Program-made: the position numbers and the translations under genes
Shown here: piece after piece, positions 22,419 through 31,024 of the stretch
Numbering within the stretch: position 1 is the stretch's first letter
Layout: each line of letters starts with the position of its first letter
Source: an uncultured Gemmatimonadales bacterium
GTDB taxonomy: Bacteria; Gemmatimonadota; Gemmatimonadetes; Palauibacterales; Palauibacteraceae
DNA length: 64,000 bases
Assembly: GCA_963783385.1 (NCBI GenBank)
Contig: CAWANJ010000002.1
Span: forward strand, 256,001 to 320,000
Direction of reading: 5' to 3'
The notes under the pieces: model-generated
Database searches by the model: none
The model's input: the letters and a program-made list of their open reading frames with translations, nothing else
Told to the model about the DNA's origin: nothing

Positions 22419-22751
22419 TCACGCGGAGCTCTTCCACCGCGTCACGGCGTCGGGCGTCGCTCCCCGAGCACGCACTCCGCGGCCTTCCCCGATCCCCCCG
22501 ACCGTCCGGCGACCCTCTGCGGACGCCTCCGGCGCTCTCCGGTCTCCTCCGCCCCGCTCCGGTCGGCTCCCGCCCTGTCCCGCGGCGAGCTGCCGGACCG
22601 CCCCGCCGCGACCCGGAGCCGACGACCCTCTGTGAAACCTTTACGTCTACAGGTGTACTAGTATCGGATTTGGCAAGCCGGAACGCGGACAAACCCTTGT
22701 GATGACAGGCGTTCCGTTCGGGCGTGGCCCTTGCTGGAGCACCGCCGTGTG

Positions 22752-23606
22752 ATGAAGAAGCTGGGTCGGCACCTGCTGGTGCTCGTGTGGATCGCGGTCG
22801 CGGCCGTCCCCCTCGTCTGGGGACTGCCCTACTACCGTCTTTCTCCCATGCAGCGCGCCTACTCCCCCCTCGACCACCTGTTCTCCTCGACCGGCCTCGT
22901 GGGCCACGGCCTGGGCGTCATCGGAACCCTGATGCTGGTCGTGGGCGTGGGGACCTACTCGGTCCGAAAGCGCGTGAAGCGGTTCAACCGGGCTGGCAAC
23001 CTGAGCGGGTGGTTGGACTTCCACATCTTCCTGTGCACCCTGGGACCCTTCCTGGTGGTCCTGCACACCGGCTTCAAGGTCAACGGCATCGTGGCCATCG
23101 CCTTCTGGAGCATGGTGATCGTGGTGGCCAGCGGCGTGTTCGGCCGCTACGTGTACGTGCGCATCCCCAAGACGCTGAACGGGCAGTTCCTGTCGCTGCA
23201 GGCCCTCGAGGAGCGCCAGCGCGAGCTGCTGGAGGAGATCCGGGGGGATGTGGGAGAGGAGGTCGCCGCCCTCATCGCGCCCGAGCCGCTGGCCATGCCG
23301 GAGCGGACGGGCTTCCTGAGGGCCGCGATCGAGGCGGTGCGCTTCGACCTCCGCTCGCGGGGCCAGCGGCGGAGGATGCGGCGCTCGCTGGAGGGTCGAG
23401 ACCTGCCCGAGTCGGTCCGCAGCCACGCCCTCGCGCTGGCACAGGAGAGGGCGCGGCTCCGGCAGCAGATCCTCCTCCTCACCCCCTTTCAACGCGCATT
23501 CCGCTACTGGCACGCCTTCCACCTGCCGCTCGCCTACGTGATGCTGGTCGTGGTGGCCGTGCACGTCGCGGTGGCCTTCCTGTTCGGCTACAAGTGGATC
23601 TTCTGA
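22752..23606 (+). CDS. Ferric-reductase/cytochrome-b-like inner membrane protein of the multiheme cluster
   Basis: About 5-6 TM segments. His in WLDFH, VVLHTGF, YWHAFHLPL and VAVHV are candidate heme b ligands. Central helical soluble domain. Alternative TTG start at 22731. Confidence 0.7.
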   Translation: MKKLGRHLLVLVWIAVAAVPLVWGLPYYRLSPMQRAYSPLDHLFSSTGLVGHGLGVIGTLMLVVGVGTYSVRKRVKRFNRAGNLSGWLDFHIFLCTLGPFLVVLHTGFKVNGIVAIAFWSMVIVVASGVFGRYVYVRIPKTLNGQFLSLQALEERQRELLEEIRGDVGEEVAALIAPEPLAMPERTGFLRAAIEAVRFDLRSRGQRRRMRRSLEGRDLPESVRSHALALAQERARLRQQILLLTPFQRAFRYWHAFHLPLAYVMLVVVAVHVAVAFLFGYKWIF

Positions 23607-25114
23607 GCGGCCGGGCCGGGGTGCGCCGGGCGCTGGCGGGAGTGCCGCTGGCGCTCCTCCTCCTGCTCGGCGGGACACACGGGGCGGCGGCCCAGCTCAT
23701 CTCCCCGGGCAAGCTGGCGGCCGCCCACTCGGACCTCGAGGGGATCCGGCGCTGCACGTCGTGCCACGAGCTCGGCAAGCGCGGGGTCTCGGATGCGAAG
23801 TGCCTCGCCTGCCACACGCCGCTCGAGGCACGCATCGAAGCGAAGAAGGGCTACCACGCCACCCTGGTCGGGCAGCCGTGCGCCTCCTGCCACAAGGACC
23901 ACCTGGGGCCGGACGCGGCGCTGGTCCGCTTCGACACGACGGCCTTCGATCACTCCAGGACCGGCTACCGGCTGGATGGAAAGCACGCAGGGGCCGCCTG
24001 CCACTCGTGCCACAAGCCCGCCTTCATCACGGCCTCCGACGTGCGCGCCTTCAAGGGCCGCCACGGCACCCTGGCCAGCACCTACCTGGGCCTGGGGACC
24101 GCGTGCGTGGACTGTCACACCAGCGATGATCCGCACCACGGACAGTTCCAGGGCCGGGCCTGTTCGAGTTGCCACACGACCGAGACGTGGAAGAAGGCGC
24201 CCGGCTTCGACCACGACCGGGCGCGCTACCGGCTGACCGGTGCGCACCGCACGGTGGACTGCGAGAAGTGCCACCGCACGGAGAGGAACTCGTCCGGACA
24301 CTGGGTGCGCTACACCAGCCTCTCCTTCGGGAAGTGCACGTCGTGCCACGAGGATCCCCACGGCGGCGGCATGGGGCCCGAGTGCACGTCGTGCCACACG
24401 ACGTCCGGCTGGAAGAAGCTCGACCGGAGCACGTTCGAACGGCGCTTCGACCATGCGAAGACCGACTTCAAGCTGGTGGGCCGGCACGCCTCCATCTCGT
24501 GCGCCAGCTGCCACGTGACCGGTACGGCGCCGGACAGCTCGATTCGCATGGCCTTCAAGCCCGGCACGTCGAGCCGGCCGTATCCGCCGCCCGTGGCGAA
24601 CAACTGCAGGTCCTGTCACCTGGACTACCACCACGGGGTGTTCGACACGCTCGCCGACAGCGGGGCGTGCGGGTCCTGCCACACGCAGGACGACTGGAAG
24701 CCTTCCACCTTCGACCTCTTCCGGCACGACCGGGAGACGACCTACAAGCTGGAGGGGGCGCACAGGGCCGTCCCGTGCGAGGGGTGCCACGACAACCCGA
24801 AGCTCGGGCAGACGTACCTCACTTTCCGCTTCGACCACGTGACCTGCCGGACCTGTCACGAGCGCACCGACGACCCGCATCACGGACAGTTCGGGGACGC
24901 GGCGTGCGAGAGCTGCCACACGGACGCGTCGTTTCAGGACGCACCCCGCTTCGACCACGGCCGCACGCGCTTCCCGCTCACGGGTGCCCACGCCGACGTC
25001 CCGTGCGCCTCGTGTCACAAGAAGGAACGCTTCCCGGACGGGTCGATGGTCGTCCGCTACCGGCCGCTCGGCATCGAATGCCGGGACTGCCACGCCAACC
25101 GTGGAGCCGCATGA
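23594..25114 (+). CDS. Secreted multiheme cytochrome c, 17 CxxCH motifs
   Basis: Signal peptide ending AAA-Q. 17 CxxCH counted, in repeating FDH...L.GxH...CxxCH modules. Overlaps the upstream gene; start GTG 23594 or 23621. Confidence 0.92.
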   Translation: MDLLSGRAGVRRALAGVPLALLLLLGGTHGAAAQLISPGKLAAAHSDLEGIRRCTSCHELGKRGVSDAKCLACHTPLEARIEAKKGYHATLVGQPCASCHKDHLGPDAALVRFDTTAFDHSRTGYRLDGKHAGAACHSCHKPAFITASDVRAFKGRHGTLASTYLGLGTACVDCHTSDDPHHGQFQGRACSSCHTTETWKKAPGFDHDRARYRLTGAHRTVDCEKCHRTERNSSGHWVRYTSLSFGKCTSCHEDPHGGGMGPECTSCHTTSGWKKLDRSTFERRFDHAKTDFKLVGRHASISCASCHVTGTAPDSSIRMAFKPGTSSRPYPPPVANNCRSCHLDYHHGVFDTLADSGACGSCHTQDDWKPSTFDLFRHDRETTYKLEGAHRAVPCEGCHDNPKLGQTYLTFRFDHVTCRTCHERTDDPHHGQFGDAACESCHTDASFQDAPRFDHGRTRFPLTGAHADVPCASCHKKERFPDGSMVVRYRPLGIECRDCHANRGAA

Positions 25115-26181
25115 TGCGCCACCGTTCGATCGCGCTGGCCGGTGTCCTGGCCCTCGCTCTCGGGGCGGGGCCCCTCGGGGCGCAGCAGAGCCTTCCCAAC
25201 CCGCACGGGCCACTTCCCAGCGGCCTCGATTGCTCGGACTGCCACACGGCCGCCAGCTGGAAGCCCGCGCACATTCCGGCCGACTTCGACCACGGCACGT
25301 TGTCGGGCTTCGCGCTCGACGGCCGGCATGCGAGCGTCTCGTGCACGGGCTGCCACCTGGATCTGAAGTTCGACGCTCCGAGGATCGCGCAGAACGACTG
25401 CGCCTCCTGCCACGCCGACTTCCACCACGGCCAGTTCGCGCAGGGATGCGGGGAATGCCACAACACGACGTCGTTCGCGGACGTCCCGGCGATCCGGATC
25501 CACGCGCAGTCGGGCTTCCCGCTCACCGGGGCGCACCTGCAGATCAGCTGCCAGAGCTGCCACTACGACGCCCGCGGCGGGAACTACCAGAACCTGGACC
25601 GGCAGTGCATCGCCTGCCATCGGAAGGAGTTTGAGACCGTCAAGTCGATCGACCACGTCGCGCAGGGCTTCCCCACGACCTGTCTGCAGTGCCACGACAC
25701 CCGCGCGTGGGCCGACGCTCCCGCGTTCGACCACTCCATGACGGGCTTCCCGCTGGTCGGCGCGCACGTCAGGCTGAGGTGTGCGAGCTGCCACATCCAG
25801 CCCGGCAACGCGCTCAAGTTCAACGCGAGTGGCCCCAACGACTGCATCGCCTGTCACCAGGCCGACTTCGAGAGGGCCCACGACAACAACGGCTTCCCGA
25901 CGACCTGCTTGGACTGCCACACGGTCGACTCCTTCCACGGGGCCGACTTCGACCACGACGGGAAGTTCTTCCCGATCTTCTCGGGAGCCCACAAGGGACG
26001 GTGGAACGCCTGTACGGACTGTCACCAGGCCGCGCCCAGTGACTACAGTTCCTTCACCTGCACGTCGGGAGGATGTCATGCGCAGGGCGAGACCGACGCC
26101 AGGCACCAGGAGGTGCGGAACTACGTGTACGACAGCCAGGCCTGTTACGCCTGCCACGCGTCGGGGCGCGGCGGTGATTGA
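25111..26181 (+). CDS. Secreted multiheme cytochrome c, 12 CxxCH + 1 CX4CH
   Basis: ATGA overlap with the upstream gene. Signal peptide MMRHRSIALAGVLALALGAGPLGA-Q. Heme motifs counted from the translation. Confidence 0.92.
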   Translation: MMRHRSIALAGVLALALGAGPLGAQQSLPNPHGPLPSGLDCSDCHTAASWKPAHIPADFDHGTLSGFALDGRHASVSCTGCHLDLKFDAPRIAQNDCASCHADFHHGQFAQGCGECHNTTSFADVPAIRIHAQSGFPLTGAHLQISCQSCHYDARGGNYQNLDRQCIACHRKEFETVKSIDHVAQGFPTTCLQCHDTRAWADAPAFDHSMTGFPLVGAHVRLRCASCHIQPGNALKFNASGPNDCIACHQADFERAHDNNGFPTTCLDCHTVDSFHGADFDHDGKFFPIFSGAHKGRWNACTDCHQAAPSDYSSFTCTSGGCHAQGETDARHQEVRNYVYDSQACYACHASGRGGD

Positions 26182-27928
26182 GCGACGTGGGACGCGGGCG
26201 GGCGGGACCGAGGTGACCCACGCCGGACGACGCCGGGCCCGGATGGCGATCGGAGCGGCGGTGGCCCTGGCCTCGACGGCAATGGTCGGGCCGGCCCCGG
26301 CCGCCGCTGCGCCGATTCGATCCGATACGGTTCCGCCGGCCGCGGCCGATACCGCGGCCCGCCGCGGAGTCGTGGCGGCGCTCGTGGACCAGATCGCCGG
26401 GACCACCCTCTACCTGCGTGCGGGCAAGGACGCCGGGCTCGCGGCCGGCGACACGATCGCGGTGTCGCGCGACAGCGCCGGCGCCATCGTCGGTCGGTTC
26501 ACCGTCATCGCGGCGACGGCCGAACGCTCGGTGGTGACCTTCGAGGGCGCTACCTTCCCGGTCACGCGGGGCCAGACCCTCTACCTGCGTCTCGGGGCCG
26601 CCGCGCCCGTCGTGGCCGGGGCCGGGGAGACGGAGCGTGCCGGTGGGGGCGGAGCCGTCGGCGGGGCGGCGGCCGCCGGTCGGGCGGCCGGTGCGATGGC
26701 TCGGGGAAGCGGGGAGCCGACGAGCGGGCCGTCCGGACCGACCGCCACCGGTCGTGTGTCCCTCGACCTCGACCTGCGCCGCTCGGTGACCAAGTTCGGC
26801 GGCGGCGACCCGGTGAGCACGACCCGCACGTTCGCCACCCCCTCGCTGTGGCTCCAGACCGCCGTCCGGGACCTCCCGGGCGGGCTCAGCCTGGACGCCA
26901 GCGCCCGCGTGTCGCAGCGCATCAGCAGCCCCTCCATCGTGGATCCCCGCACGGCGCCCGAGATCTACGAGGCCTCGCTCGACAAGCGGTTCGGCGATGT
27001 CCCCCTCGACCTCCGTCTCGGGCGCTTCTACAGCCCGTACGATCCCTTCGGCGGCTACTGGGACGGCCTGTCGCTTCACTACGGGAGCACCTTCGGGGGC
27101 GGGGTCATGGCCGGGTTCGAGCCCAAGCGCAGCAACCAGGCGCCCCAGGGAGAGCTACCCAAGGCCAGCGCCTTCCTGGACTATCGATCGGCGCCGGGCG
27201 CCGGCGTGGGTTACAACGGCACGCTCTCCTTCACGGCCATGCGTCCCACGGCGAGCAGCGGCCTGGCCGACCACACCTTCGCGAGCATGTCCCAGCGGCT
27301 CCGGGTGGGCCGCTGGTACCTGACCCAGGACGCCCAGGTGGACCGGGGCGCGGCTGGCACGGGCTGGACCCTGACGCGGGCGCGGCTGTGGGCCTCGGGT
27401 CCGGTGACGAAGGAGCTGTCCCTGCGCGGCGGCGTGTCCCGGTACAGGCCCTACCTGTACTGGATGTCGGACAGCGTGCTCATCTCCTACCGCCGGGACG
27501 AGGCCAGGGGAGGCTTTACGCTGCGGCTGCCGGGCGCGTGGATCGGGGCCGACGCCGGGATCGACCACGACGAGGGGGTCGGGACCGGCCACACCTTCTC
27601 CGGCTACTTCGGTCTGAGCCGGATCACGCCGCTCGACCTGGGCTTCGATGCGTCGGCGAGCTGGTTCACGAACGGGACGACGCGCGTGCTGACCGCCTCG
27701 GCACACTTCACGAAGGCTCTCGGACGCGTGAGCGCCCGGCTGGGCTACGACCTGTACCGCTCGGAGGCTCCCCAGGGCTTCTGGATCATGAGCCACGCGG
27801 CGGACCTGGGCCTCGACGTCCCCCTGTCGGGCGGCTTCCACTACTCGATCCTGGGACAGTTCCGGATCGGCGGCGGCCTGGGCGAGACGCGCCTGTATAC
27901 GAGCCTTTCCAAGTTCTTCGGCCCATGA
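26174..27928 (+). CDS. Putative outer-membrane beta-barrel (porin-like) protein with small N-terminal beta domain
   Basis: Signal peptide and Ala/Gly linker, then about 390 aa of alternating amphipathic strands rich in G/Y/F/W/S, ending LYTSLSKFFGP. Start 26174, 26213 or 26243. Confidence 0.65.
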   Translation: MIERRGTRAGGTEVTHAGRRRARMAIGAAVALASTAMVGPAPAAAAPIRSDTVPPAAADTAARRGVVAALVDQIAGTTLYLRAGKDAGLAAGDTIAVSRDSAGAIVGRFTVIAATAERSVVTFEGATFPVTRGQTLYLRLGAAAPVVAGAGETERAGGGGAVGGAAAAGRAAGAMARGSGEPTSGPSGPTATGRVSLDLDLRRSVTKFGGGDPVSTTRTFATPSLWLQTAVRDLPGGLSLDASARVSQRISSPSIVDPRTAPEIYEASLDKRFGDVPLDLRLGRFYSPYDPFGGYWDGLSLHYGSTFGGGVMAGFEPKRSNQAPQGELPKASAFLDYRSAPGAGVGYNGTLSFTAMRPTASSGLADHTFASMSQRLRVGRWYLTQDAQVDRGAAGTGWTLTRARLWASGPVTKELSLRGGVSRYRPYLYWMSDSVLISYRRDEARGGFTLRLPGAWIGADAGIDHDEGVGTGHTFSGYFGLSRITPLDLGFDASASWFTNGTTRVLTASAHFTKALGRVSARLGYDLYRSEAPQGFWIMSHAADLGLDVPLSGGFHYSILGQFRIGGGLGETRLYTSLSKFFGP

Positions 27929-29301
27929 GCGACGGCGCCATCATCCTGGCCGCGGGCCTGTCGCTGGCCCTCGTCTTCATGGTGCCGTTCGTGATTCGGC
28001 TCCGGCGCCGGGAGGCGGCCACGCGCGAGGCGGAACTCCAGGCCCTGCGCTACGGGCTGCACGAGCCGGTGACGCTCCACCCCGTGGTGGATCCCGACGT
28101 GTGCATCGGATCGGGCGCCTGCGTCCGCGCCTGCCCGGAGGTGGACGTGCTCGGTCTCATCGATGGGCAGGCCAGGGCCGTGGCCCCGGGACGCTGCGTG
28201 GGCCACGGCCTGTGCGAACGCTCCTGCCCCGTGGACGCCATTCAACTGGTGTTCGGAACCGAGAAGCGGGGCGTCGATCTCCCCCGCATTCAGGGCAACT
28301 TCGAGACGAACGTGCCGGGCCTGTACGTGGTGGGCGAGCTGGGCGGCATGGGACTCATCCGCAACGCGTTCGCCCAGGGACGCCAGTGCGTGGAAGGCAT
28401 CGCCCGGGACCTCCGCCAGAACGGCGGCCACCGATCGGCCGGCACCGGCGACCCGGGTCGGGTGCGGGGCGGGAACGGAGGGGCCCCCGACCCCCTGGAC
28501 GTGGTCGTGGTGGGCTGCGGCCCGGCCGGCCTCTCCGCTTCGCTCGAGTGCCTGGAGCGCGGCCTCCGCTTCACGACCATCGAGCGCGAGTCGGACCTGG
28601 GCGGCACGGTGCGTCACTACCCGCGCAAAAAGCTCGTGATGACCTCCTCGTTCAGCATTCCGGGTCATGGGAAGGTGAAGGCGGGGGAGATCCAGAAGGA
28701 TGGCCTCATCGGCCTGTGGCGTAGCGTGCTCGACGAGAGCGGGCTCGAGGTCAACCGAGGTGAGACAGTCCTCGAGGTCAATCGTGCCAACGGCAATGGA
28801 TTTCATGTTGTTACGGACAGGCAAAGATACAGCACGCGCCGGGTGGTCCTCGCCATCGGACGGCGGGGCGTACCGCGCACGCTCGGGGTCCCGGGCGAAG
28901 ACCTGCCCAATGTGGCGTACTCGCTGCGCGAGCCGGAGGCGTACCAGGGTGACCGCGTGCTCGTCGTCGGGGGAGGCGACTCGGCGGTCGAGGCCGCCCT
29001 GGCCCTGTCGTCCGAGTCCGGGAACACGGTGAGGCTCTCCTACCGCGGCGAGCGGTTCACGCGCATCAAGCCGGCCAACCACGACCGCGTCGAGGCGGCG
29101 ATCGCCGGTGGGAAGCTGGAGGTGCTGTTCGGCACGAACGTGGCCGAGATCGCGCTGGACCACGTCGTGCTGGAGGACGGAGAGGGACGGAGCCACACCG
29201 TCCCCAACGACCAGGTGCTCGTGTTCATTGGCGGCACGCTCCCCACGCCCTTCCTGAAGGCGTGCGGGATCGCCGTCGACACCAAGTTCGGTACCGTCTG
29301 A
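27925..29301 (+). CDS. Membrane-anchored Fe-S ferredoxin / TrxR-like NAD(P)H:FAD oxidoreductase
   Basis: N-terminal TM. Fe-S motifs CIGSGACVRACP and CVGHGLCERSCP. Flavoprotein motifs TNVPGLYVVGE, VVGCGPAG, LAIGRRG and VVGGGDSA...SYR. ATGA overlap with the barrel gene. Confidence 0.88.
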   Translation: MSDGAIILAAGLSLALVFMVPFVIRLRRREAATREAELQALRYGLHEPVTLHPVVDPDVCIGSGACVRACPEVDVLGLIDGQARAVAPGRCVGHGLCERSCPVDAIQLVFGTEKRGVDLPRIQGNFETNVPGLYVVGELGGMGLIRNAFAQGRQCVEGIARDLRQNGGHRSAGTGDPGRVRGGNGGAPDPLDVVVVGCGPAGLSASLECLERGLRFTTIERESDLGGTVRHYPRKKLVMTSSFSIPGHGKVKAGEIQKDGLIGLWRSVLDESGLEVNRGETVLEVNRANGNGFHVVTDRQRYSTRRVVLAIGRRGVPRTLGVPGEDLPNVAYSLREPEAYQGDRVLVVGGGDSAVEAALALSSESGNTVRLSYRGERFTRIKPANHDRVEAAIAGGKLEVLFGTNVAEIALDHVVLEDGEGRSHTVPNDQVLVFIGGTLPTPFLKACGIAVDTKFGTV

Positions 29302-29512
29302 GCTGACGCGTCTCCCTCCCGCGCGGGAGGCGCCGCCGTACCGTGGCCCGGACCGCGAGAGGCTTCGCGGACGCCCGAGGCCGTGGAGGAGGTCCCCGGC
29401 CACGCGGTTCGAGCCGGCCGGAGGCCCGAAGCCCACCCGCTTCCCGCGCGCGGGTCACTGCCCACGTGTGACGTCCTATGTTGGGCGTCCCTGAACGCGA
29501 TGGAGCGCCCCG

Positions 29513-31024
29513 ATGCGTGGACATTCGACGTTCCTGGCCGGTGCCCTGTTCCTGGTCCTGTCCGCGGGACCGCTACGCGCCCAGGACGGGCACAAGAACC
29601 CCCACGGACCGCTGCCCGAGGGGCTCGACTGCGCGGACTGCCACGCGGCCAGCGGGTGGAAGCCCGCGCACGTCCCGGCGGACTTCGATCACCGGAGGTG
29701 GTCCGGCTTCGCCCTGGACGGTCGGCACGCCACGGCGTCCTGCGGCGCCTGCCATCTGGATCTCCGGTTCAATGCGCCGAAGATCGCCGAGGACGACTGC
29801 GCGTCCTGCCACGCCGACTTCCACCGCGGCCAGTTCGCCGAGCCGTGCGCGACCTGCCACGGCATGACCTCGTTCGCGCAGGTGCCCGCGGTCCGGATCC
29901 ACGCCCGCTCGGGCTTCCCGCTCACCGGAGCGCACCTGCAGATCAGCTGCCAGAGCTGTCACTTCGACTCCCGGGCGGGAAGCTACCGGAACCTGGACCG
30001 CCAGTGCGTCGCCTGTCACCGACGTGACTTCGAGACGGTCAAGTCCATCGACCACGAGGCCCGCGGCTTCTCGACGGAGTGCCTCCAGTGCCACGACACG
30101 CGCGCGTGGGCGGACGCGCCGAAATTCGACCACGCTCTCACCGGGTTCGCGCTGGTCGGGGCGCACGTCCAGCTCCGCTGCTCGAGCTGTCACGTCCAGC
30201 CGGGCAACGCGCTCAGGTTCACGCCGAGCGGTCCCAACGATTGCATCGCGTGCCACCAGGCGGACTACCAGCGGGCCCACGGGGGCGGCGGCTTCCCGAC
30301 CACCTGCCTGGACTGCCACTCCGTGGATTCGTTCCACGGGGCCAGCTTCGACCACGCGTCGGTGGGATTCCCGCTGGTGGGAGCCCACCAGAACGCCGCC
30401 TGCTCGGGCTGCCACATCCAGCCGGGCAACGCCCTCAAGTTCAACCCGAGCGGTCCCAACGACTGCGTCGCGTGCCACCAGGCCGACTTCACGCAGGCCC
30501 ACGGCGGCAGCGGCTTCCCGACCACCTGCCTGGACTGTCACGACCAGAACTCTTGGCAGGGCGCAGACTTCGACCATTCATCGACCGGCTTCCCACTGGT
30601 GGGAGCCCACCAGAGCCTCCAGTGCTCGGGCTGTCACATCCAGCCGGGCAACGCCCTCAAGTTCAACCCGAGCGGTCCCAACGACTGCATCGCGTGCCAC
30701 CAGGCGGACTTCACGCAGGCCCACGGTGGGAGCGGCTTCCCGACCACGTGCCTGGACTGTCACGACCAGAACTCGTTCCAGAACGCGGACTTCGACCACG
30801 ACGCGCAGTTCTTCCCCATCTACTCGGGGTCGCACCAGGGACGGTGGACCGCCTGCACGGACTGTCACCTGTCCGCGCCGGCCGACTTCGCGAGCTTCAG
30901 CTGCACGTCGGGCGGCTGCCACGGGAGGTCCGATACCGACTCCCGGCATGGCGACGTCCGGAACTACGTGTACGACAGCCAGGCGTGCTACTCGTGCCAT
31001 CCGCGCGGACGGGGCGGCGACTGA
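29513..31024 (+). CDS. Secreted multiheme cytochrome c, 18 CxxCH + 1 CX4CH; repeat-expanded paralog of 25111-26181
   Basis: Signal peptide ending LRA-Q. Colinear with the 13-heme gene, plus two extra 74-aa modules. Confidence 0.93.
   Translation: MRGHSTFLAGALFLVLSAGPLRAQDGHKNPHGPLPEGLDCADCHAASGWKPAHVPADFDHRRWSGFALDGRHATASCGACHLDLRFNAPKIAEDDCASCHADFHRGQFAEPCATCHGMTSFAQVPAVRIHARSGFPLTGAHLQISCQSCHFDSRAGSYRNLDRQCVACHRRDFETVKSIDHEARGFSTECLQCHDTRAWADAPKFDHALTGFALVGAHVQLRCSSCHVQPGNALRFTPSGPNDCIACHQADYQRAHGGGGFPTTCLDCHSVDSFHGASFDHASVGFPLVGAHQNAACSGCHIQPGNALKFNPSGPNDCVACHQADFTQAHGGSGFPTTCLDCHDQNSWQGADFDHSSTGFPLVGAHQSLQCSGCHIQPGNALKFNPSGPNDCIACHQADFTQAHGGSGFPTTCLDCHDQNSFQNADFDHDAQFFPIYSGSHQGRWTACTDCHLSAPADFASFSCTSGGCHGRSDTDSRHGDVRNYVYDSQACYSCHPRGRGGD
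30125..30790 (+). repeat. Three tandem 222-bp intragenic repeats, each encoding a 74-aa three-heme module
   Basis: TTCGACCA (FDH) recurs at 30125, 30347, 30569 and 30791, an exact 222-bp period. Copies 2 and 3 are nearly identical over their 3' two-thirds. The paralog has a single copy at 25726-25947. Confidence 0.92.

Follow-up and report, generated by a model that had tools for sequence, protein, structure and literature searches.

A PCC3-type porin-cytochrome cluster with a flavoprotein as constant fifth partner may connect cytoplasmic NADPH to the cell exterior

A run of heme, membrane and flavoprotein genes

The stretch of DNA studied here (the window, 64,000 nucleotides) corresponds to positions 256001-320000 of contig C2 in the genome of an uncultured Gemmatimonadales bacterium (3.54 Mb, 92% complete). 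It contains a run of six genes that a preliminary description, made from the letters alone, had read as a candidate electron conduit across the cell envelope, fed by NAD(P)H rather than by quinol. All six open reading frames (ORFs) are present, on the plus strand, where that description had placed them:

22752..23606, plus strand: gene A, inner-membrane protein of 284 residues
23621..25114, plus strand: gene B, secreted cytochrome c of 497 residues with 17 CxxCH motifs
25111..26181, plus strand: gene C, secreted cytochrome c of 356 residues with 12 CxxCH motifs and 1 CX4CH
26174 (GTG) or 26243 (ATG)..27928, plus strand: gene D, outer-membrane barrel protein (predicted)
27925..29301, plus strand: gene E, cytoplasmic flavoprotein of 458 residues, anchored by a transmembrane (TM) helix
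29513..31024, plus strand: gene F, cytochrome c of 503 residues, paralogue of C, with 18 CxxCH motifs and 1 CX4CH

The heme motifs, counted anew, give the total of 47 CxxCH and 2 CX4CH that had been claimed. The wording 'five overlapping genes' was too strong, as A stops at 23606 and the likely GTG start of B lies at 23621, leaving a gap of 14 nt. B/C and D/E overlap by 4 nt, while the overlap of C with D is conditional on D starting at GTG 26174; the ATG at 26243 fits a database protein of 561 residues that is 99% identical to D. The GC content at third codon positions (GC3) is uniform, at 0.89-0.94 across all six genes, and many genomes share the same genes (see below), so that the gene set is not due to chance.

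A predicted di-heme membrane protein and a permuted flavoprotein

Gene A had been described as encoding a His-rich protein with several TM segments. The protein has 10 His and five TM helices, to which the structure model adds a cytoplasmic helical hairpin (predicted local distance difference test score, pLDDT, 84.8). Two WX3HX13H motifs (W87-H91-H105 and W253-H257-H271), of which the HX13H pairs lie on TM3 and TM5, flank an SGxxG motif at residues 127-131. The four candidate heme ligands, H91, H105, H257 and H271, were invariant in all 53 sequences of an alignment for which 52 of 120 matches had been picked for diversity. Among 115 long-type homologues, 114 have two HX13H pairs, 107 have two complete WX3HX13H motifs and all have SGxxG. 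From the basic loops we infer that H91 and H257 lie on the cytoplasmic side and H105 and H271 on the periplasmic side. The motifs WX3HX13H and SGXXG define the inner-membrane protein (IMP) of two types of porin-cytochrome cluster, PCC3 and PCC4, which was likened to the heme domain of ferric reductases (FRD) and NADPH oxidases (NOX) and modelled as quinone-active (He 2017, PMC5566968). By these motifs, A is predicted to be a di-heme b protein of the PCC3/PCC4 IMP type.

For A, a helical bundle, fold searches showed no clear cytochrome b match. Foldseek gave no match to the model at E 0.001, and a PDB sequence search with the A profile returned no relative at the same threshold. The best VIA match consisted of ABC-transporter helices (Z 11.1, root-mean-square deviation (rmsd) 6.2, 149 residues aligned), and in the ESM Atlas both A and D fell into clusters without a name. 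Of 43 long A homologues, 2 matched the ferric-reductase TM family PF01794, as did none of 53 close members; the hydrogenase-type cytochrome b family PF01292 was matched by a distant relative of A (1.5e-6, below the cut-off) and weakly by 4 of the 53 close members.

The preliminary description of E as a TM-anchored protein with Fe-S, FAD and NAD(P)H sites was borne out. A single N-terminal TM helix is followed by basic residues, a ferredoxin domain (Fer4) and a FAD/NADPH part (Pyr_redox) with the fold of thioredoxin reductase (TrxR). The ferredoxin domain has two atypical iron-sulfur (Fe-S) cluster sites, C60/S63/C66/C101 and C91/H94/C97/C70. H94 stands in place of a Cys in 44 of 44 sequences, and position 63 is T, S or I in 41 of them and Cys in 3, Cys being commoner there in a divergent subfamily and in the fusion proteins described below. 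We considered the possibility that H254 of A provides the missing fourth ligand of the three-Cys cluster. This was rejected: H254 is kept where position 63 is a Cys (18 split pairs) and is an Arg in most fusions.

The closest solved relative of the E flavin domain is PDB 7a7b (E 1e-30), and the TrxR-type ferredoxin-NADP reductases (FNRs) 3ab1 and 5ygq are also close. The flavin part is circularly permuted, since residues 121-172 align, weakly, with the FAD segment at the C-terminus of two TrxR-like proteins encoded by the same genome (E 0.004 and 0.08) and residues 192-456 with the N-terminal part of the same two proteins. E reaches 59 of the 343 bits of the TrxR cut-off and 164 of the 340 bits of the YpdA cut-off, and it has no CxxC where the genome's own TrxR has one. 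R374 and R380, the NADPH-type arginines by the TrxR motif, are conserved in 91 of 114 sequences (a further 21 could not be parsed), suggesting that E uses NADP(H).

Genes A and E are conserved together and sometimes fused

To follow the cluster in other genomes, we collected 121 loci with a match to A, 115 of them long-type and 6 distant; they are best matches plus hand-picked long contigs, not a random sample. Setting aside 47 long-type loci as too short (<8 kb downstream or <1.5 kb upstream) left 68 informative ones. In 65 of these (the exceptions being L046, L048 and L115), A and E occur together with D and at least two cytochromes, so that the flavoprotein and membrane-protein genes are indeed conserved beside the cytochrome genes, a point on which the preliminary description depended. 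D accompanies long cytochromes in 66 of the 68. Four gene orders occur: A-B-C-D-E, A-E-B-C-D, E-A-B-C-D, and E divergent from A. At L084-L086 (genomes G121, G124 and G164), a second run of cytochromes (9, 20 and 16 motifs) lies on the far side of the divergent E gene, an arrangement that suggests two wires around one flavoprotein. At another locus (L081; NC_018749.1, 78197-89995), plasmid pEMTOL02 of the cultured organism Emticicia oligotrophica carries ccsA-A-E-B-C-D as a self-contained module.

The same pattern was found genome by genome. Among 301 genomes of the phylum, in counts where kin are not independent, 64 have both A and E, 1 has a weak A match only, 4 (assemblies of 80-250 contigs) have E only and 232 have neither. 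Within the family of the host, the cluster occurs patchily, in 2 of 22 other genomes. In the phylum to which a Draconibacterium genome belongs, 38 of 301 genomes also have an A match, which lies at E <1e-50 in 32 cases. The A profile matched 976 representatives at E 1e-30 or better, and the host phyla found are Gemmatimonadota, Rhodothermota and Bacteroidota. The identities of A and E are correlated (r 0.83, 75 loci); this was set aside and not used as evidence, because kin share history.

A search for longer A homologues returned 43 proteins, of which 37 are full E-A fusions of about 740 residues, with E first and a compatible topology; several are named Planctomycetota. Of the remaining six, five combine A-like domains with other Fe-S domains; for the sixth, no domain is recorded. 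Proteins P0165, P0168, P0194, P0196 and P0197, in which A-like domains are joined to a different Fe-S domain (two are also cNMP-binding), represent an independent fusion type. Long open frames at L131-L133, suspected to be fusions within the phylum, proved to be ordinary split genes, and a metagenome scan with a fusion protein found no fusion locus among 53 (of which L138-L141 were inspected).

Seven loci with distant relatives of A were checked, and in 6 of them a different NAD(P)H flavoprotein adjoins the A relative, of the FNR type (L082), the Pyr_redox type (L100, L101 and L103) or the PCC4-like type (L129 and L130); none was seen in L102, where one neighbour was scanned. The L082 module (L082:10061-13415), on a Methylophaga plasmid, has no porin: it consists of an FNR/2Fe-2S flavoprotein, a distant IMP and a 7-heme cytochrome, and it sits among heavy-metal and ccm genes. 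Full-length relatives of this IMP occur on many conjugative plasmids, with 53 other plasmid records. L129 and L130 (genomes G446 and G310, from the Bacteroidota sample) are PCC4/Ptd-like clusters with a cNMP-Fe-S protein, an IMP, a decaheme cytochrome, FHA proteins and a Pyr_redox-FHA-Fer2 protein.

The complex of A and E was predicted with two hemes and two Fe-S clusters. It obtained a score of 0.61, against 0.01 for the best of 3 controls; the score mark is reached by 116 of 157 solved pairs and by 2 of 215 mismatched pairs, a calibration that holds roughly here, where own alignments and ligands were used. The halves of a split gene can pass this mark by likeness, and A has no solved relative that we found. 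Contacts agreed between runs to at least 91%, and the partner pLDDT was at least 70. In the predicted complex, the TM helix of E packs on TM4/TM5 of A, and residues 58-65 and 99-104 of E face residues 82-88 and 251-256 of A, beside H91/H257; the E loop with C60, S63 and C101 would contact A next to the cytoplasmic heme ligands. With the natural fusions and this prediction, the partnership of E with the IMP A, which the preliminary description had supposed, is well supported.

A predicted barrel and three multiheme cytochromes

The identification of D as a probable outer-membrane barrel hinged on its fold, and the model of D is a 22-strand barrel (pLDDT 86.2). The barrel spans model residues 131-523, with no TonB-type plug within that range. 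A disordered linker joins it to a small beta domain at the N-terminus (window 26351-26590, model residues 7-80), which shows a weak likeness to FlgT_C in 5 of 59 members. The fold matches were outer-membrane barrels of every kind (best Z 20.4, rmsd 3.9, 368 aligned), the best being TonB-dependent/SusC barrels and ushers, with MtrB at rank 19 (Z 15.9, rmsd 4.7, 337 aligned). None of 59 D homologues matched MtrB_PioB (PF11854) at E 0.05. The possibility that the components belong to an already characterised complex, raised earlier, found no support in family, PDB and MtrB searches.

Cytochromes B, C and F are built from tri-heme repeats, with 29.2, 27.4 and 26.5 residues per heme, respectively. 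Their non-motif His outnumber the hemes and Met is scarce, which fits bis-His ligation. Both B and C have signal peptides, and PDB sequence searches for the two gave no relative at E 0.001. We sorted the 224 complete multiheme ORFs of the loci by end-motif patterns into 88 B-type, 68 C-type and 68 unclassed ones. Of the classified B-type homologues, 86 of 88 have 17, 20 or 23 motifs; all 68 classified C-type homologues have 3n+1 motifs, with a range of 10-67. B is likely the wire that spans the periplasm, as suggested by the position of its counterpart in PCC3 clusters and by its narrow size range. C is likely a barrel-associated, outward-facing wire of variable length, as judged from gene order and size ranges: 10-67 hemes, as compared with 17-23 in the B type, fit a wire that projects past a periplasm of fixed width.

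F is a paralogue of C with two extra tri-heme repeats (78% nucleotide identity to C over 824 nt; internal repeat, 84%). It is accessory, since in the closest relative, L001, the gene is almost entirely lost, its upstream region being followed directly by the final 29 codons (L001:16567-16725), and since L002 and L003 have no F after E.

A proposed route from NADPH to the exterior and its alternatives

To our knowledge, characterised porin-cytochrome conduits draw on the quinone pool, which limits the potential that they can deliver. The conservation of the five genes together and the fusion of E to A elsewhere make it likely that the cluster passes electrons from NADPH to the outside without a quinone step, and we regard this as the probable function, through E, the b hemes of A and the cytochrome wire. 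On the observed genes, motifs, linkage and fusions, the carriers and their order would be as follows. NADPH would reduce the FAD of E, from which electrons would pass to the His-ligated Fe-S cluster and on to the three-Cys cluster. Across the predicted A-E contact, they would reach the cytoplasm-side heme b of A (H91/H257) and then its periplasm-side heme b (H105/H271). Cytochrome B would take them across the periplasm to cytochrome C (or F), in or beyond the predicted barrel D, and thence to an acceptor outside the cell.

Electron transfer from the cytoplasm to the periplasm is helped by the membrane potential and spends it rather than building it. It is therefore likely that the conduit acts as a reductant valve or supplies low-potential electrons to acceptors beyond the reach of menaquinol (minerals, humics, partner cells), and it would be neither a primary respiratory chain nor a coupling site.

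A broader form of this proposal we put forward tentatively, and hold a little less likely than its opposite: that a five-subunit machine wires cytoplasmic NADPH to the exterior independently of the quinone pool, making acceptors below the menaquinol potential reducible, in about one-fifth of the sampled Gemmatimonadota and one-tenth of the sampled Bacteroidota genomes. This form includes a NOX-like inner-membrane module, in which the permuted TrxR fold would be combined with one cluster ligated by His and one by three Cys, and a wire the reach of which would be tuned in three-heme steps (10 to 67). If true, an NADPH-fed conduit would offer ordinary heterotrophs of soils, sediments and the sea an outlet for reductant, or a means of reducing low-potential minerals, humics or partner cells, and the IMP of the PCC3 family, now modelled as quinone-active, would be reassigned. 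The route is directly testable, as the cultured E. oligotrophica has the five genes behind ccsA on pEMTOL02 and the E-A fusions are a one-chain enzyme.

Several observations weigh against a quinone-independent path to the outside. The host encodes heme-copper oxidases, as well as quinol-linked routes to periplasmic cytochromes elsewhere in its genome (an NrfH-like 21-heme protein, two Rieske/cytochrome b pairs and ACIII-like genes), so that a bypass of quinones would at most characterise this one cluster. C has no lipobox: no Cys follows its signal peptide, and hence it has no lipid anchor. L115 contains A alone, with an internal stop. The complex prediction covered the A-E interface, one of four on the route (the others being A-B, B-C and C-D). 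One of the type PCC3 clusters, Slit_1446-1449, has an HD hydrolase (Slit_1445) and an aldolase (Slit_1450) as neighbours, not a flavoprotein, and its IMP may therefore work without an adjacent E. Finally, the IMP was modelled as a quinone-active cytochrome b by He 2017 (PMC5566968).

The last two points also bear on the alternative that survives best, though we consider it unlikely, namely that A is a quinone-reactive di-heme cytochrome b and that E and A together form an NAD(P)H:quinone oxidoreductase, the wire meeting the quinone pool at A in a three-way junction. A three-Cys cluster beside a membrane heme b is also present in the quinone-linked NarGHI and Sdh. The matches to PF01292, of the distant A relative below the cut-off and of the four close members, point the same way, as do the missing flavoprotein at the ES-1 cluster and the likening of the IMP to quinone-active cytochromes b (PMC5566968). 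Yet the strict A-E linkage and the fusions indicate that the dominant partner of A is a pyridine-nucleotide enzyme, and He 2017 (PMC5566968) recognises in the HX13H spacing on TM3/TM5 the pattern of FRD/NOX proteins.

It is improbable, in our estimation, that the electrons stay in the cell, with E and A feeding periplasmic cytochromes as a capacitor or for the reduction of small substrates and D serving as a substrate channel or an export/assembly pore. Clusters of an IMP, a cytochrome and a redox protein without a porin are listed in He 2017 Table S6 (PMC5566968), the short-IMP loci L082 and L100-L103 have no porin (only a D-type barrel was looked for), D resembles TonB-dependent/SusC barrels and ushers best, and C lacks a lipobox. 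Against this, D is plug-less in its barrel range and nearly always accompanies long cytochromes, and the different size ranges of the C-type and B-type cytochromes fit a wire that leaves the periplasm.

Least probable of all is the same chain running inward, which would take up electrons from Fe(II) minerals, from Fe(0), from a cathode or from a partner cell and reduce NAD(P)+ directly: TrxR-type FNRs, close to E in the PDB, often make NADPH, but such a flow would be uphill in redox and membrane potential for most donors. PCC3 clusters are found in iron oxidisers and were proposed to serve uptake (PMC5566968, PMC10734462), yet both ES-1 PCC3 clusters were reported to be downregulated on Fe(II), and the hosts found here, Gemmatimonadota, Rhodothermota and Bacteroidota, are not known lithotrophs.

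Genomic setting

The neighbours of the cluster are ordinary genes: those upstream encode an epimerase, a PAP2 protein and an amidase, and the one downstream a protein with a carboxypeptidase-regulatory domain. This context is common to the three closest loci. The nearest relatives of A that bear a name carry the label Gemmatimonadota. One further feature lies ahead of gene A:

22630..22657, plus strand: short conserved stretch, of which positions 22648-22657 form an imperfect palindrome (TACA-NN-TGTA)

By eye, this stretch is conserved in the window, L001 and L002, and partly in L003, and it is a weak candidate for an operator or promoter element. No match to a sigma-70 promoter or to a terminator was found. 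Upstream of A, 112 loci showed no convincing enrichment of Rex, CRP, FNR or Fur consensus motifs; the Rex motif occurs in 5 of the 112, as compared with 0.9% in shuffles, and the window scores only 8 of 14.

Domain scans found no NapC/CymA or NrfD gene in the cluster, as previously stated; such genes are present elsewhere in the genome. The genome also encodes the cytochrome c maturation proteins for which a check had been advised (CcmA, B, C, E, F, G and H-like genes at C1:685-692 kb), as well as a transhydrogenase beta subunit. A second multiheme cluster (G000:C9:838000-855000; L106 and L107) has proteins with 9, 4, 4, 4, 3, 13, 9, 21 and 11 motifs, the 21-heme protein having an NrfH-like N-terminus, together with two Rieske/cytochrome b pairs, an FdnI-like cytochrome b and two ORFs without a family match (L106:11857-13484); it adjoins a V-type ATPase operon. 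At G000:C3:150644-158188 (L108), a Ser/Thr kinase gene has that of a MauG/MbnH-like diheme protein on one side and, on the other, that of an HAO/HDH-like octaheme cytochrome, whose match (E 4e-26) falls far short of the cut-off.

Comparison with known systems

PCC3 is a predicted four-gene cluster listed from Proteobacteria, e.g. Slit_0867-0870 and Slit_1446-1449 of Sideroxydans ES-1 (PMC5566968, PMC10734462). The preliminary description had mentioned a possible link to it, and four of the present genes fit its published features. A has the size (about 300 residues), the five TM helices, the two WX3HX13H motifs and the SGXXG motif of the IMP; there are two large, repeat-rich cytochromes with a low residue-per-heme ratio (26-30 in PCC3); the porin has many strands (22 here and 22 in that of L. 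cholodnii); and A-B-C-D repeats the order IMP, periplasmic multiheme cytochrome, extracellular multiheme cytochrome, porin of Slit_1446-1449. Hoover 2023 (PMC10734462) gives 21/24/27 hemes for the periplasmic and 10-35 for the extracellular cytochromes, the same contrast of a narrow and a wide range as between our B and C types, though the B-type counts are 17/20/23 here, and the 17 and 13 hemes of the present B and C are at or below the published low end. A-B-C-D is thus a PCC3-type cluster by published features and gene order. The main difference is the fifth gene, which encodes a TM-Fe-S-FAD enzyme and is a constant, sometimes fused, partner. We found no paper on PCC3 with this flavoprotein in the mostly non-subscription literature covered; Supplementary Figure 4 and Tables S3-S5 of PMC5566968 may list these taxa or the redox domains of PCC4. 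He 2019 mentions novel, unnamed PCCs in Bacteroidetes, which may include this family.

PCC4/Ptd and the FNR-associated PCCs likewise combine a porin, multiheme cytochromes, a ferric-reductase-like IMP, an FAD/NAD(P) oxidoreductase and an Fe-S protein in one cluster. The A profile matches the IMPs of the two PCC4-like loci at E ~1e-22. In PCC4/Ptd, the three periplasmic cytochromes have 4, 5 and 10 hemes and a separate cNMP-Fe-S gene precedes that of the IMP (PMC5566968; 10.1101/2023.11.21.568154). The present cluster, in contrast, has 17, 13 and 19 motifs and no cNMP domain; the cNMP-Fe-S and flavoprotein genes are separate in PCC4/Ptd, and the IMP is of a distant family. The flavoprotein PtdC of the ptd operon was given as 'completely unknown' in function (Elbon et al., 10.1101/2023.11.21.568154), 7 of 11 decaheme PCCs were noted to have an FNR gene nearby, 'suggesting potential functional coupling' (PMC13264449), and He 2017 Table S6 (PMC5566968) lists an 'other redox protein' beside clusters. 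In what we could consult of these papers (PMC5566968; 10.1101/2023.11.21.568154; PMC13264449), the function is given as unknown or quinone-linked, and no path from NAD(P)H to the exterior is proposed.

The earlier suggestion that the operon may join two designs, porin-cytochrome conduit and NADPH oxidase, stands in part. The A-E partnership and the PCC3 parts support it; the design is less unique than implied, since flavoprotein genes beside sister clusters (Ptd, PCC4-like) were already in print, without a mechanism. What goes beyond the published accounts that we found is the fifth subunit, E, of a real and conserved PCC3-type cluster, PCC3 itself being a predicted kind.

With MtrCAB, MtoAB and PioAB, the cluster shares a barrel and a multiheme wire, and the similarity of D to MtrB (Z 15.9) is shared with many large barrels. 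B, C and F have no match to DmsE/MtrA (TIGR03508), and no MtrB_PioB porin or MtrA decaheme was found in the host genome, as assembled to 92%. Unlike MtrCAB, the cluster has 22 barrel strands, no lipoprotein cytochrome and no CymA. YpdA/Bdr and the TrxR-type FNRs, which include the closest solved relatives of the E flavin domain, also have no CxxC; E differs from YpdA and TrxR in being circularly permuted and in having a TM anchor and a ferredoxin domain of its own.

NOX enzymes carry electrons from NAD(P)H through FAD to two bis-His hemes, with a dehydrogenase of the FNR type (FAD_binding_8 / NAD_binding_6). A resembles the NOX/FRD heme domain by its two HX13H pairs on TM3/TM5, and the E-A fusions are the one-chain equivalent. 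In contrast to the FNR-type dehydrogenase, E has its Fe-S clusters inserted into a permuted TrxR fold, and the acceptor of the electrons would here be a cytochrome wire, rather than O2 or soluble Fe(III).

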